From a virus, in UHGV virus genome UHGV-0121369: a stretch of 25,410 nt of DNA, one strand, 5' to 3'. Each line of letters starts with the position of its first letter. Positions within the stretch are counted from its first letter, which is position 1. The translations under genes and the position numbers were made by a program. The notes below the pieces were generated by a model. It did not search any database. It was not told where the DNA came from and was given only the letters and a program-made list of their open reading frames with translations. Shown here in pieces: positions 3,720-9,346 of the stretch.

Positions 3720-4811
3720 TCAGTAATGAATTTTCGCGCAGGGGATCAGGTCATCTTTCAGTGCGGTGAGCACTTCGATAGCCTGTTCGCGGGTTAAACT
3801 GGTGTGGCTGGTGAGCGCGTTAACGATGTTGGTGCCGACCGTCTTGCGGTGCTTCACGTCAGCTTCGCGCTTTGCCTGCTCTTCGGCTTTGCGCTTCTCT
3901 TCGGCCAAGCGATTTTTTTCTTTTGCTTCAGCCTCGCGAAGAATGCGGTCATTCTCTTCTTGCTGCTTTTGAATAGCCTCAGCGTTAATTAGGAGTTGTT
4001 TGATCTGCGCAATTGCTTGCTGCTTGGCATTTTCAGCTGCACCCATCAATGAGCCAAAGCGCCCATCGATAGGCCACGCCTCAGCTTCAGCAAGCGTTTC
4101 TTTAATGCACTGGATTGTTCCACCCTGGCGAACACCTAAACGACCCGACTGAGCGATGATCACCTGCTGCTGAATTCCGCTGATCTCACTAAGTGCATCC
4201 TGGTGCTGCTGGCGTTCACGGTTGGCTTTTTCTTCAGCATCACGAGTGGCTTTTTCAGCGGCTTCTCGCTGGATCTTTTCATCACGTTCACGCTGAGCCT
4301 GTTCCTCCAGGCGGCGCCGCTCTTCGCGGTCGCGGTCGAAATCCTTATTCATCAGCAGAGCCATTTCGTGGTCCGCTTCGAACTTGTCCGCCAACTCCTG
4401 ATCTAACTTGATGTTCATTTCCAGCGCTTCGGCGTGCAGTGCGTTCATGGCTTCTTCAGCCTTAATGCGTTCCTGCTCGGCTTCCCATTCGGTGAGTGGG
4501 CGGCGGGTCGCATCGCGCAGCTCGTCACATGCATCAACGAACCGCTTAATTTCAGCCTCGGCAGGGCGTACAGCCTCTTTCAGGCGCTTCAGGTACTCAC
4601 GGCCCGGCTTTTCAATCGCCGTCTTACTGCGGGATACCTGCGCCGCCAGAGAGGCGACACGGTCACGGCCTTTCTTCGTAGAAAGGTCAGGCACTTCGTT
4701 TACTGCCTGGCGGATCTGCTCAAGGAAAGCGTCAAGGCCACCGGCGATATATAGTGCTGGTGCCTGATCTGGCTTGATTTCGATGACAGTTAAGTCCGTT
4801 ACTTCGCTCAT
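3720..4811 (-). CDS. Charged coiled-coil protein of unknown function
   Basis: Open frame 3720..4925; a strong SD (AGGAGAAACC) precedes the internal ATG at 4811 (MSEVTDLTVIEIK...), which I take as the start. Long E/K/R/A-rich central region (RERDEKIQREAAEKATRDAEEKANRERQQHQ...). Confidence 0.6.
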   Translation of the reverse strand: MSEVTDLTVIEIKPDQAPALYIAGGLDAFLEQIRQAVNEVPDLSTKKGRDRVASLAAQVSRSKTAIEKPGREYLKRLKEAVRPAEAEIKRFVDACDELRDATRRPLTEWEAEQERIKAEEAMNALHAEALEMNIKLDQELADKFEADHEMALLMNKDFDRDREERRRLEEQAQRERDEKIQREAAEKATRDAEEKANRERQQHQDALSEISGIQQQVIIAQSGRLGVRQGGTIQCIKETLAEAEAWPIDGRFGSLMGAAENAKQQAIAQIKQLLINAEAIQKQQEENDRILREAEAKEKNRLAEEKRKAEEQAKREADVKHRKTVGTNIVNALTSHTSLTREQAIEVLTALKDDLIPCAKIHY

Positions 4812-5610: not shown

Positions 5611-5638
5611 GGTATGAAAAAGCCGCTGGTTAGGCGGC
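5611..5638 (-). terminator. Intrinsic terminator-like hairpin immediately after the first early-left gene (tL1-like position)
   Basis: On the minus strand: stem AGCCGCC/GCGGCT followed by UUUUU, starting at the stop codon of the 5638..5934 ORF. Confidence 0.45.
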
Positions 5639-5934
5639 TATTGAGGTTCGCGCGGCTTGTGGTCGAATCGGTGCCACCCGTCAGTTAATTCAAATGGAGC
5701 ATAACTTTCCCGGCGCTCAGCGAACCCAAGCTCAACAGACAGAGCGTGCAGCTCATGCCGACGCTTAATCTGTTCCATCGCAATCCAGTCAGCATCGGCA
5801 TTGCGCTTTTGAGCTTGCTTCGGCGACAGGTCTAAACTGTTTATTTCACTTAGTTTCTGCTGACGCTTGATGTCCTGTTTCATATTGCGAAGCGCATTTA
5901 TCATTGAGTCGATGCGCTTGATGTCGTCGATCAT
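5638..5934 (-). CDS. Hypothetical protein, first gene of the early-left operon (occupies the N position but is not N-like by eye)
   Basis: 98 aa, SD gagggtaagggg before ATG; no N-terminal arginine-rich motif of N-family antiterminators; followed by a terminator-like hairpin. Confidence 0.55.
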   Translation of the reverse strand: MIDDIKRIDSMINALRNMKQDIKRQQKLSEINSLDLSPKQAQKRNADADWIAMEQIKRRHELHALSVELGFAERRESYAPFELTDGWHRFDHKPREPQ

Positions 5935-6137
5935 CCCCTTACCCTCTATCGTTACCCGCTGATGCGGGAGAAATGCTTTGGTGGTGAAGGCCGGACGTTA
6001 CCCCGGCGATGTGTTCCGGTCCGCTCGTTCGCGCTTCCGTGGGCCACCTTGCTACCCAACCCCGTGATTCAGTGTGTACGGTTCGCCACTTTGCGTGTCA
6101 CCGATTTCCCACGCCGCTTCACCCCAAAGCACTTCGC

Positions 6138-6240
6138 CACAACGAAAAGAGCACTACCGCGTTTTGCCATTCCATCCTGGCTTTTGGTACTGCAATGGCT
6201 GCGAGATTATTTTTTGCATGCCAGCGCTCTTTTCGTTGTG
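6138..6240. repeat. 15-bp perfect inverted repeat (CACAACGAAAAGAGC ... GCTCTTTTCGTTGTG) separated by about 75 bp inside the ORF-free early-left leader
   Basis: Read directly from the sequence; predicts a long-range RNA stem in the leftward transcript. Confidence 0.6.
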
Positions 6241-6590
6241 AGCCGTCTCTCCGGCTGTCACCCTTGGCGTTTCATCCAGTTGCAGGCCGTAGCCACTTAC
6301 CAGACGGACGCCACTCGAACTTCGTGTTGCGGGTTACACCTGTACTACGCGTCGAGTCCGCGCCCCGCAGTTAGCCTCTCATACGGGGAAAGCTGTGTTA
6401 TTGGCAGTAGGTTGCCAGCCGGGCAGCTAAGATTTGTTCATTAAGCGCCAACTCCCTGCCAGTGTTGCCCGTTCTCACGCCGTTATCGCTCTCGCGCGGG
6501 GATACTCTCTCACCGACCGGATCGCACACGGTGATACAGCACGTTTTCGTGTAGGGGTCTTAACAGGTCATTGACGCTGTAAATCTGCAT

Positions 6591-6622
6591 GTTGTTAAAA
6601 AGCAGGCGACTTACTGTCCGCC
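6591..6622 (-). terminator. Hairpin plus U-run about 40-60 nt downstream of the predicted pL start (attenuator-like)
   Basis: Minus strand reads GGCGGAC-agtaa-GTCGCC then UGCUUUUUAACAAC. Confidence 0.35.
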
Positions 6623-6662
6623 GCTGGCTAACTTCGCTCAGCTGTCGATGTTTCGTTTCGAT

Positions 6663-6711
6663 GAGCTGATTATTAACTAATGGTTATTTTCAGTCAATAA
6701 CCATTGGTTAA
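6663..6711 (-). promoter_or_regulatory. Predicted early-left promoter pL with two operator-like palindromes (oL)
   Basis: Minus strand: TTGACT - 17 nt - AATAAT. Overlapping inverted repeats TTAAC-N5-GTTA(T) (about 6673-6687) and TAAC-N5-GTTAA (about 6698-6711) match the palindrome type seen between cI and cro. Confidence 0.5.
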
Positions 6712-6815
6712 TTATTTTGCCATTGGTTATTAAGGTTATGATTTATTGGTTAATTTAGTTCTGTTATGGATTTGTGCAGTACGTGCTATGCTGCAAAAAA
6801 CATCAGGAGGTAGCT

Positions 6816-7034
6816 ATGGAACGAGATGAACGTGCAGATGAACGAATGGCCTTCATGGCTGGAGAGGTTGGGTGCGTAGTGTTCGAGCTGGTTTATAACG
6901 GAATTGAAATCAATAAGGACAACATTGTGGGATTTCTGGAAGGGAAGCGCAAAGCCGTAGGAAACGTGATCCATAAGGGGATGCTACGGGATGCAGCTGA
7001 GATAGTCAGGAAGGGTAGTAAAGCTGTGAAGTAG
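6816..7034 (+). CDS. Small basic protein of unknown function (72 aa), convergent with the cI-linked accessory gene
   Basis: Strong SD caggaggt 6 nt before ATG at 6816 (track ORF begins at an upstream GTG, 6774); MERDERADERMAFMAGEVGCVVFELVYNGIEINKDNIVGFLEGKRKAVGNVIHKGMLRDAAEIVRKGSKAVK. Confidence 0.5.
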   Translation: MERDERADERMAFMAGEVGCVVFELVYNGIEINKDNIVGFLEGKRKAVGNVIHKGMLRDAAEIVRKGSKAVK

Positions 7035-7036
7035 GC

Positions 7037-7066
7037 ACAAAAAACCCGGCGCGGTGGCCGGTTGTT
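7037..7066 (-). terminator. Rho-independent terminator (strong on minus strand, weak on plus) between convergent genes
   Basis: AAAAAA-CCGGC-gcggtg-GCCGG-TTGTT; on the minus strand the GC stem is followed by UUUUUUG, directly after the stop of the 289-aa gene. Confidence 0.6.
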
Positions 7067-7934
7067 AAAGCTCAATATCAACTATGAAAAGTTTACTAAT
7101 AGCCCCTTTTCTAACTGCTGCTTTGGCAGTTACTTTTACCGCTGACTCATGACTTAGACCCGTTGACAGAAAACGACTAAGTGAAATGAGATACGGGTTG
7201 TCTGCCTTTGAAGCAGATGGATCGCTTATTTGTGCTGAGATGCGCTTATCTGAATCATCACCTTCTATAATGACTTTAGCGGTCATTCGGTGAGCGTCGA
7301 ATTCAGTAAGGAAGATTCGATACTCCCTTAAGCCAAGAACTTCGTCGTCGTCCAACTGGTCTATTACTGCTTTATCTTGCTCATCAATTACAGCAGGCTT
7401 GAAACCATTCCCCGGTGTGACGCTTATCTTATTACAGGTGGTACCGATGGGGGAAACTGCCTGTCTAACTGATGGGCGTAACTCACTAGCCATCTTGTCA
7501 ATCACTGAGATTAGACCTGAGATGGTATCTTTATCTTTATTTCCGAGGGCCTCAATTGCCTTCTCAAGTGCTTCTTTTAGGTATTTCATTTCCTCTTTCT
7601 TCTGCGAGTTTTTAGCGAAGATATAAGGCACTAATGCGCCAAGTATAGCCCCCGCAGACCCTGAGAACAATTGAGACTGACTGATAAAATTCATGATAGT
7701 ATCAAGAGAAAAACAATTGGCCCTAGCTTCGGTAGCGTAAATTTTAACCTCTTGAGTTGAGGTGCTTCGCGAGTACTTTTGGGTTAATGCGAAGGTTCCA
7801 GCTGTAGCTAATATCTTCGAAAATCCCTTTAGCGATTCACCGAGCGAAGAAAGTTCAATCTCATGCTTTTCAGCATCCAAACCGTCATATCTAAGTGAAA
7901 AATTAACATCGTGTAAGCCAGTGTTTTCCATCAA
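7065..7934 (-). CDS. Unknown 289-aa protein in the cI-adjacent slot; candidate lysogen-expressed exclusion/defence protein
   Basis: Starts 43 bp downstream of the cI stop on the same strand with no intervening terminator; visibly AT-rich relative to neighbours; one hydrophobic stretch ([18 protein letters not shown]); does not match RexA/RexB as I recall them; function is inference from position. Confidence 0.65.
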
Positions 7935-7977
7935 CAGTCCTTATATGCTTTCACCAAAACGTCTCATCAGGCCACCG

Positions 7978-8754
7978 CTACAGCAATACCGAGTACCAGA
8001 AGAGACGGCCAATTATCTCGACATCATCAATATCAGCCTCTTCGTCTGGGTAGGAGTCGTTGTTGTAACTGCGGATGATCAGCTTCCCACCTGGCTTACG
8101 ATACAGCTGTTTAATGCGCTTGAGTTGACCATTCCCGCCATCTGTCTGACCAATGGCATACAGTTTCCCATCAACTATGCGTTTGTTGTTCGTATCGACG
8201 GCTACAGTCGTACCATCCGGTATCACAGGTTCCATGCTGTCGCCAGTAGCAGGGAAACACAGGATGCCAGACCCATCTGTGTTAGCTCCAACGCGGCGGA
8301 GGGTTGCCTTTGAGAACCTGAGCTTAAAACCATTGTGATCTTCGCTGTGTACGCGTCCATCGCCACACGCAAATTCAATATCCTTAAGAAACGGCACTTC
8401 AACCTCGTCAGCAGGAAGCGGTGTGTTTTTATCCCAGGCGTCAACAGTTCCCCATTCAGATTCTGGAGGGATAGATGACTCCCTACGCAGTTCAGGTTCG
8501 GGATCATTCCTTCCGTATTCAAGCCACTCAGGCCGTACCCCAAGCCAGCGGCTAAGGGCAAGGATATTGGTTTGGTCTGGTATCGCTGATGCGTTAAGCC
8601 ATTTCCAGATCCCGGGCTCAGATACAGTAATTCCTTGGGACTTCATAGCCTCTCTGATCCTACCAGCCTGCCCACGACCACCAACGCCAGCATCAAGCAA
8701 TGCAGCGCGAAGTCTTTTCGAGAATTCTTCTTTTAAATCGTCTTTTTTAACCAT
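7978..8754 (-). CDS. cI: CI-like prophage repressor (HTH plus S24 LexA-type peptidase domain)
   Basis: 258 aa; N-terminal HTH region; C-terminal S24 motifs (FPATGDSMEP with the Ser, ...LKRIKQL with the Lys); no SD, and a GATAAT hexamer sits 6 nt upstream of the ATG, consistent with a leaderless pRM-type transcript. Confidence 0.88.
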   Translation of the reverse strand: MVKKDDLKEEFSKRLRAALLDAGVGGRGQAGRIREAMKSQGITVSEPGIWKWLNASAIPDQTNILALSRWLGVRPEWLEYGRNDPEPELRRESSIPPESEWGTVDAWDKNTPLPADEVEVPFLKDIEFACGDGRVHSEDHNGFKLRFSKATLRRVGANTDGSGILCFPATGDSMEPVIPDGTTVAVDTNNKRIVDGKLYAIGQTDGGNGQLKRIKQLYRKPGGKLIIRSYNNDSYPDEEADIDDVEIIGRLFWYSVLL

Positions 8755-8838
8755 TCGTTAATTATCAATTAGAGTTGACATAACTGTCAGTTAAGATATA
8801 ACCTTAACTCGTAGTTAATATAGTTAACGGAAAACACT
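8755..8838. promoter_or_regulatory. Immunity switch: divergent pR/pRM with three overlapping operator palindromes
   Basis: Plus strand: TTGACA (8775-8780) then TATAAC-like -10. Palindromes TAAC-tgtca-GTTA (8781-8793), TTAAC-tcgta-GTTAA (8804-8818), GTTAA-tatag-TTAAC (8814-8828). Confidence 0.6.
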
Positions 8839-9084
8839 ATGAACCCAATGCAATTTGCAATCGAAGCTGTAGGCGGTCAAACCGCTGCTGCTCGCCTGTG
8901 TGGCCTATCGAACGTTGCTATTCACAAGTGGGTGAAGAACGCGGCGCTGCCTCGTACTGAGTACACAGAGAAAACCAACTATTCGCAGCTTTTGGCTGAC
9001 GCATCAAATGGGCAGTTTACGGCTGAATGGCTCCGTCAAGCAGCTAACCCTGACCGAATTAAACAAGATTCACATGCCGCCTGA
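8839..9084 (+). CDS. cro: Cro-like HTH regulator
   Basis: 81 aa, first gene rightward from the operator region; HTH segment QTAAARLCGLSNVAIHKW. Confidence 0.7.
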   Translation: MNPMQFAIEAVGGQTAAARLCGLSNVAIHKWVKNAALPRTEYTEKTNYSQLLADASNGQFTAEWLRQAANPDRIKQDSHAA

Positions 9085-9124
9085 CCGGCGGCCATAACCA
9101 ATTAAATCAGAGGAATTATCGCAA

Positions 9125-9346
9125 ATGGAGACCTTAACGACACGCAACAAAGCGGAGGCACGACGAATTGAGAGCTGGGTGCAGCGGCAAATCGCAGATC
9201 TTGGGACAACCAGGATCGCCGAAGTAGCTGGCGTGAACAAATCAACCGTAAGCCGGTGGCGGGAGAACCTGGTGCCGAACATGTCGCTGCTGCTCGCCAT
9301 CCTGATTTCTAGCAGGGATGGAGTGAAGGGAGATTTTGAAGCATGA
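9125..9346 (+). CDS. cII: CII-like transcriptional activator
   Basis: 73 aa; RIESWVQRQIADLGTTRIAEVAGVNKSTVSRWRENLVPNMSLLLAIL parallels lambda CII (RIESALLNKIAMLGTEKTAEAVGVDKSQISRW...FSMLLAVL). Confidence 0.75.
   Translation: METLTTRNKAEARRIESWVQRQIADLGTTRIAEVAGVNKSTVSRWRENLVPNMSLLLAILISSRDGVKGDFEA

Follow-up and report, generated by a model that had tools for sequence, protein, structure and literature searches.

Gene 40A behind a prophage repressor: a catalogued but functionally uncharacterised gene and candidate exclusion factor

The interval between cI and N is a recognised hotspot that holds rexAB as well as bstA, and the architecture of the bstA locus is conserved across diverse Gram-negative prophages (PMC8585504). 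The locus closest to the one treated here is that of phage phi80, in which the gene for "protein 40A" (PHI80_46, AFV29182.1) lies between cI and the left operator (OL). It has been in GenBank since the early-region record X13065 of 1988. We analysed its counterpart, likewise called 40A, in the virus genome UHGV-0121369, a stretch of 25,410 nucleotides referred to as the window (Table 1). The locus is real and was correctly described in an earlier note on this DNA. 40A is already catalogued but functionally uncharacterised. Based on its comparative context we read it, with moderate confidence, as a lysogen-expressed factor that acts as a single protein in exclusion or abortive infection.

Gene 40A, its family and its slot behind prophage repressors

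The 40A protein of the window is 100% identical in amino acids (aa) to that of phi80 and is encoded at the same position between cI and OL. It matches the Pfam models DUF7946 (E=3.8e-62, 210 bits, cutoff 27; model positions 1-183 of 183) and DUF7947 (E=1.2e-20, 73.8 bits, cutoff 27). Both scores are above the gathering score, which makes 40A a full-length member of the family. Moreover it matches phrog_5147 with E=2e-156. DUF7946, DUF7947 and PHROG 5147 are catalogued families without assigned function. The earlier note had regarded the protein as undescribed and had seen neither 40A nor the convergent 72-aa protein in any recognisable family. This was wrong on both counts: 40A is a known phi80 gene (X13065) with Pfam and PHROG entries, and the small protein belongs to phrog_3975. 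The lack of likeness to RexA, RexB, SieB or characterised defence proteins is borne out by the Pfam and PADLOC scans. No characterised homologue of 40A was found, and the protein is absent from the DefensePredictor paper and its supplements.

The phi80 record carries a note of an "acetate kinase superfamily domain", which is unsupported by Pfam or NCBIfam matches. The NCBIfam family LAPAL_fam (putative phage structural protein) was rejected as an assignment. 40A reaches 24.8 bits against a cutoff of 60, and its gene is part of the immunity region and not of a structural module.

An exhaustive HMMER profile search retrieved 640 cluster representatives of the 40A family (E<=1e-3). Most of the representatives listed measure 270-300 aa, with shorter fragments besides. 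A family member is present in 139 of 5426 complete E. coli genomes. In 62 of them 40A is at least 99% identical; a sampled listing of this group holds mostly laboratory strains (DH5alpha, TOP10 and JM83 among them) and natural isolates such as TC24 and 730V1. The laboratory strains named carry the identical 40A together with phi80 cI via phi80dlacZdeltaM15. The remaining 77 genomes have a variant with ~68% DNA identity, and all among those listed are natural isolates. In E. coli AST216 (locus 3878-4742) this natural variant is annotated as a frameshifted pseudogene. Hence a 40A-type gene is seemingly dispensable to at least some lysogens.

The earlier note had placed a 289-aa open reading frame (ORF) at 7065..7934 on the minus strand, which is found in the ORF list. 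Translation probably begins one codon past the TTG at 7934, with the ATG at 7931, since a Shine-Dalgarno (SD) sequence AAGGA (7942..7938) sits 6 nt 5' of it and the RefSeq product WP_000432054.1 is the 288-aa form. The TTG is thus probably not the start. 40A is more AT-rich than its neighbours, as noted before: its GC content is 0.42 (0.38 at third codon positions) versus 0.50 for cI and 0.517 for the whole window. A low value of this kind would be typical of mobile cargo.

The stop codon of cI is located at 7978-7980, so that the spacer measures 43 nt if counted to the TTG of 40A and 46 nt if counted to its ATG. The scan detected neither a terminator-like nor a promoter-like site in this spacer. 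The same-strand arrangement without an intervening terminator, claimed earlier, therefore stands, and read-through of the cI transcript is to be expected. At the other end the 40A stop codon abuts the hairpin of an intrinsic terminator, again in agreement with the earlier description of a GC stem with a T-run. Its T tract is weak on the plus strand (TTGTT). The hairpin is kept in HK225 (100% over 7040-7061), HK639, CX21, 88COLEC and one Klebsiella prophage. 40A consequently fills the slot between cI and OL with the leftward promoter (pL), on the strand of cI, which is the rexAB slot of lambda. Given the many homologues and the strong Pfam and PHROG matches, both 40A and the convergent 72-aa ORF are real genes and not chance ORFs.

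The borders of the inserted piece are well resolved by comparison to E. coli 88COLEC, whose cI protein and OL are the same. In blastn, 6592-7015 (OL and most of the small gene) match at 98% and 7978-9000 (cI including its stop codon) at 99.7%, whereas 7016-7977 are replaced. The homology breaks exactly after the cI stop codon at 7978. The phi80 match to the window runs through 7976. The cassette spans from the cI stop codon to the conserved terminator hairpin AAAAACCCGGCGCGGTGGCCGGG. The slot is filled in 88COLEC by two other hypothetical genes (116 and 141 aa), in CX21 by a YafO-family toxin pair, in HK225 by genes similar to HK97 gp48/gp49 and in HK639 by three unknown genes. PADLOC gave no match at E<=0.001 for the alternative cargos scanned, with the HK639 genes left out of the scan. 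40A seems to be a self-contained single-gene cargo. The cassette within otherwise near-identical immunity regions is a practical place to mine further candidates.

The position behind a repressor recurs in relatives. At 48-65% identity they are found at distances of 30-450 bp behind repressors of at least five kinds. These are a 131-aa CI-like repressor in Klebsiella, an S24 repressor in Vitreoscilla (58 bp gap), two S24 repressor variants in Morganella (34-58 bp gaps) and, in metagenomic prophages with shuffled replication modules, a repressor at a distance of 30 bp. The natural E. coli variant lies in lambda-like prophages behind a 230-aa XRE repressor, and in phi80 40A follows phi80 cI. Defence genes are found nearby in some cases. 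A Serratia island combines a relative with AbiD (E=5e-55) and AlpA, and the neighbours of another relative are IS1595 and a gene pair for an AbiLi-like ATPase (E=1e-43) and PDC-M38B. One relative is part of an element with a D5-type primase, and one in an Aureimonas prophage is encoded on the strand opposite to its neighbours. By association, this distribution is as expected of a mobile single-gene defence cargo.

In Vitreoscilla sp. C1 (locus 7661-9274) the 40A relative is followed by a 537-aa SIR2/STALD protein (PADLOC PDC-S25, E=2e-142). This slot thus appears to hold two stacked candidate defence genes behind one repressor.

Within 40A a nested in-frame product, 40B, was annotated by the depositors of X13065. 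Its start corresponds to Met115 of the true 288-aa protein. Due to a frameshift error in this record (1761-2390), 40A is truncated to 209 aa, and 40B is cut short as well. Met115 is kept in 30 of 34 relatives, and several cluster representatives start exactly at this residue, which may be gene-calling artefacts. A conserved SD sequence in front of Met115 is not seen in 12 homologous genes. By analogy, an arrangement of the putative 40A/40B pair like that of SieB and Esc is possible.

Predicted structure and putative function of 40A

The structure of 40A was predicted using AlphaFold2 (mean predicted local distance difference test, pLDDT, 81.5; predicted template modelling score, pTM, 0.66). 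The model consists of four parts. Part 1 is an N-terminal beta-alpha-beta-beta unit. Part 2 is a helical region, the first helix of which is a conserved Gly/Ala-rich hydrophobic helix (aa 88-106). Part 3 is a short linker with an SPIG motif, and part 4 a C-terminal OB-fold. Conservation was evaluated in an alignment of 34 relatives down to 30% identity. Invariant in all of them are R14, D16, G17, D19, A20, H23 and C73 of the N-terminal unit, P161 and G163 of the SPIG motif, as well as D212, R230, D237-P238, Y247 and K270 of the OB-fold. 40A contains all motifs of the family, R-[YF]-D-G-x-D-A-x-x-H (R14-x-D16-G17-x-D19-A20-x-x-H23 in 40A), A-N-C-F, S-P-I-G and the D-P of the C-terminal domain.

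A structure search of the PDB returned no match for the whole protein or for its N-terminal domain, and a profile search against PDB sequences gave noise alone (E>=0.017). The search of BFVD yielded one uncharacterised phage protein. Based on the model, the N-terminal domain seems to be novel, and 40A as a whole looks structurally unlike any known defence protein.

The single hydrophobic stretch pointed out in the earlier note corresponds to the helix at aa 88-106, which averages 1.67 on the Kyte-Doolittle scale over 19 residues. The value is at least 1.6 in 26 of the 34 relatives. A clean transmembrane helix was nevertheless rejected as unproven, since every relative has a positive value for the simple Hessa sum.

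The protective role of 40A is deduced from its conserved position behind unrelated repressors together with the defence-gene neighbours. In the mechanism we propose, 40A would be a self-contained "moron" cargo inserted directly after the prophage repressor. In the lysogen it would be transcribed with cI from the maintenance promoter, and judging from the anatomy the transcript would end at the hairpin at 7036-7061. The product would then probably protect the lysogen from other phages. The earlier note had suggested a lysogen-expressed defence module; the comparative context makes an accessory or defence role the best reading, while the two-gene form of the proposal is not retained (see below). 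How such a protein would act is speculative, and the following is at best a doubtful sketch drawn from the model. The OB-fold could be a sensor that recognises phage nucleic acid or protein. The N-terminal motif with C73 and the hydrophobic helix could form the effector, working by membrane association or by a new kind of catalytic activity.

Several points speak against a defence function. Domain fusions hinting at an effector are found neither in the HMMER search nor in Pfam scans of relatives of odd length nor in a profile search with the N-terminal domain; the same two-domain architecture always appears. The literature searched makes no mention of DUF7946/DUF7947, of the PADLOC candidate PDC-S42 (see below) or of 40A together with phi80, and PDC-S42 is itself a candidate only. 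As a membrane segment the hydrophobic helix is marginal: the Hessa sum has a median of +2.9 kcal/mol, 40A has no signal peptide, and the charges flanking the helix fit poorly. One sampled relative is surrounded by ordinary metabolic genes with no obvious link to phages or defence. Homology to validated defence proteins is absent.

Phage sensitivity adds to these points. The phi80dlac strains, which carry the identical cI-40A pair, are routine sensitive hosts for T4, T7 and lambda-vir. EPI300 presumably has a phi80dlac genotype too. It is the host used in PMC9519451. On the side of defence, lysogens of phi80/Lula fully prevent T4 development and cut the P1 yield 10-fold, the determinant being unassigned (PMC2885432). 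Due to the sensitivity of phi80dlac strains, the T4 block is unlikely to stem from 40A, and any protection given by this gene must be narrow. HK106 moreover plates normally on a phi80 delta-taiEcA lysogen in which 40A is retained; this study of Tai concerns orf63/64, not 40A (PMC11364771). Any protection by 40A is thus likely narrow and perhaps aimed at particular temperate phages.

As a tentative extension, DUF7946-DUF7947 could found a new single-protein, repressor-coupled anti-phage family with a hitherto unseen combination of folds: a novel domain with a D/D/H/C motif, a latent membrane helix and an OB-fold sensor. Members would be present unnoticed in DH5alpha, DH10B/TOP10 and JM83 and maybe tuned by 40B in the way SieB is by Esc. 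If a defence role holds true, a structurally novel one-gene family with at least 640 cluster representatives across Proteobacteria would join RexAB and BstA. Host-range effects would then matter for phage plating and for defence-library screens in DH5alpha, TOP10 and JM83. The identical 40A and phi80 cI in such common laboratory strains make the gene unusually easy to study.

Alternatively, 40A could have an accessory role in regulating the lysis-lysogeny switch or the induction of its own prophage, as a nucleic-acid-binding protein whose target would be the immunity region or repressor function and not foreign phages. For lambda RexA, whose gene fills the corresponding slot, an influence on the switch to lytic growth has been reported. 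40A is tightly linked to repressors of many types, its predicted OB-fold is compatible with binding of DNA or RNA, and the induction behaviour of phi80 is unusual (PMC2885432). However, the repressors it follows are unrelated and have different operators, which argues against a repressor- or operator-specific partner. Prophages with an identical cI do without 40A and carry other cargo, and some relatives are found outside prophages, next to AbiD and AbiL-like genes. Altogether a switch regulator is rather improbable.

The strong enrichment of the family in the repressor-downstream slot and in mobile elements is likewise hard to reconcile with a factor of lysogenic conversion or host fitness unrelated to phages, e.g. 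a membrane-associated stress or envelope protein. Such a role would be consistent with the conserved hydrophobic helix that is followed by a charged coiled region, with the name YhcB-like given to one relative by JGI, with weak matches of two relatives to a ZapG-like Pfam family and with the relative among metabolic genes. Defence genes adjoin relatives in three sampled contexts, though, and neither a signal peptide nor a convincing transmembrane segment is present. We therefore give a host-fitness role only a small chance.

The convergent small gene and the backbone of the window

The 72-aa gene has a strong SD sequence and converges on the terminator of 40A, as described before (AGGAGG, 6 nt spacing); it ends 5 nt short of the hairpin region. 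Its product had been called basic, which holds true but only weakly (pI 7.9). It matches phrog_3975 with E=1e-31 and has 98 homologues. The AlphaFold2 model (pLDDT 90) is a three-helix bundle. No informative match was found for it. The family is a constant neighbour of OL in immunity regions of the phi80, HK225 and HK639 types.

The small gene stays in place as the cargo changes. Homologues in Citrobacter and in metagenomes adjoin other cargos (134/155 aa; 159+88 aa), and in a Salmonella prophage the gene converges straight on the repressor with no cargo between. Conversely, no small-gene neighbour is called or annotated for the relatives of 40A in Vitreoscilla, Morganella, Serratia and natural E. 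coli. The ancestry of the two genes differs as well. The window copy is HK225/88COLEC-like (92-98%) and only 52% identical to that of phi80, although 40A is identical to its phi80 counterpart. It is a chimera, its last residues deriving from the phi80-like cassette.

Since it occurs with other cargos or none, and 40A occurs without it, the small gene appears to belong to the backbone of immunity regions of this class and not to be a partner of 40A. A two-gene module of the toxin/antitoxin or sensor/effector kind, as the earlier note had envisaged, is hence largely refuted by distribution and highly improbable: the genes are adjacent and convergent with a terminator in common in the window, phi80 and E. 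coli TC24 and 730V1, and in a Klebsiella prophage a convergent gene of 67 aa takes the corresponding place, but that gene is not demonstrably homologous (hhalign probability 24%), at least five other cargos accompany the small gene elsewhere, and 40A lacks this small gene in the four groups above and others. Type II toxin-antitoxin pairs are co-inherited and co-oriented, whereas these genes are convergent and each is found without the other.

In phi80 (JX871397, 4211..4420) a 69-aa homologue of the small gene lies between OL and 40A and was left unannotated in the GenBank record.

An alignment of the window, phi80, CX21, 88COLEC and HK225 shows that different immunity types share a block GTGnTATGCTGnAAAAAACATCA (6784-6806) ahead of the small gene, though the adjoining operators differ. 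The block contains an extended -10-like element, TGnTATGCT, that abuts the outermost OL operator. The consensus promoter scan did not call this candidate. The conserved element beside the operator suggests a putative repressor-controlled promoter of the small gene, divergent from pL.

Table 1. Coordinates of the features of the 40A locus in the window.
Feature	Position	Strand	Details
Gene 40A	7065..7931	minus	288 aa; stop codon 7065-7067; DUF7946 aa 11-191, DUF7947 aa 201-286; alternative TTG start 7934
Candidate nested in-frame product 40B	7065..7589	minus	from Met115, 174 aa; annotated in X13065
cI-type repressor	7978..8754	minus	258 aa, C-terminal S24 peptidase domain; WP_000239214.1
cI-40A spacer	7935..7977	minus	holds SD AAGGA; neither terminator-like nor promoter-like site by scan
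Intrinsic terminator of the presumed cI-40A transcript	7036..7061	minus	stem 7061..7046 (CCGGC-CACCGC-GCCGG), tail GTTTTTTGTG 7045..7036; by scan
Apparent swapped cargo cassette	7016..7977		last 6 codons of small gene, terminator, 40A and leader; phi80-like; blastn borders versus 88COLEC
Small gene, apparent backbone (phrog_3975)	6816..7034	plus	72 aa; AGGAGG 6 nt before ATG; predicted three-helix bundle
Candidate extended -10 element of the small-gene promoter	6784..6792	plus	TGcTATGCT within block GTGnTATGCTGnAAAAAACATCA
OL operator repeats	6672-6760		half-sites GGTTAA/TTAACC; inverted repeat with 17-bp arms 6672-6712
Candidate pL	6669..6697	minus	TTGACT-17-AATAAT inside OL repeats; 10/12 matches in scan

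The repressor matches Pfam Peptidase_S24 (E=1.2e-15) and phrog_4 (E=2.8e-43). It shares ~71% DNA identity with phi80 cI over part of the gene only and is of a different immunity type. The candidate pL is located at the same position as the annotated pL/OL of phi80, HK225 and HK639. We also considered an OL of the phi80 type that would be mismatched to the resident cI. This proved wrong, as only nutL and 40A are phi80-like, whereas OL is of the window's own immunity type.

The integrase WP_000627155.1 (loci 6499-7692 and 236-1429) is common to the prophage of the window and to phi80dlacZdeltaM15 of TOP10. Owing to this shared protein, the window appears to represent a phage of the phi80 type that has the 40A cargo of phi80 but another immunity region. 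In E. coli 21AR0133 the integrase gene of the window's prophage adjoins kch.

A GC-rich stretch (0.55-0.58) at 5935-6443 separates an N-like gene (5638..5934, minus) from the phi80-like nutL region. It is not common to phi80 and holds only odd ORFs on the plus strand (160 and 121 aa), for which NCBIfam gave no match and RefSeq has no annotation. Scans of the window for Rfam families and tRNAs were empty.

Comparison with known systems

With phi80 the window shares the 40A protein and its position. The spacer between cI and 40A is 136 nt in phi80 versus 43 nt here, and the repressors differ.

The sole PADLOC match of 40A is PDC-S42. Like 40A it is a single-gene candidate, and the N-terminal ~130 residues align: aa 9-136 of 40A match model positions 4-130 of 302 with 23 bits (E=1e-5). 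PDC-S42 is matched by 19 of the 34 relatives in the N-terminal half (best E=1e-5). The match is weak and partial, falling short of full length, and the C-terminal part is unlike that of 40A.

SieB of P22 and lambda, accompanied by Esc, is a prophage exclusion protein as well. The possible parallel is the nested in-frame product, candidate 40B. The SieB gene, however, belongs to the PL operon and does not follow cI, and 40A shows no Pfam match to SieB at E<=1.

The slot is shared with lambda RexA/RexB, whose genes likewise follow cI on its strand and precede OL/pL, and co-transcription with the repressor would be expected for 40A as for them. Unlike RexAB, 40A stands alone between cI and the terminator, and there is no multi-pass membrane protein like RexB. 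The two-gene organisation of RexAB, a sensor plus a membrane channel, is thus not seen at the 40A locus. Pfam and PADLOC contain Rex models, and 40A matches no RexA or RexB model in either at E<=1. RexA is also absent from the listed top structural matches of 40A.

BstA of Salmonella phage BTP1 and its relatives resembles 40A in being a single prophage protein of ~300 aa encoded downstream of the repressor. Sequence and fold are unrelated, however, and 40A has no KilA-N-like domain according to Pfam and PADLOC. Of an embedded DNA element of the anti-BstA (aba) type there is no evidence in 40A. Taken together, its role is probably a variant of the repressor-linked prophage exclusion gene.

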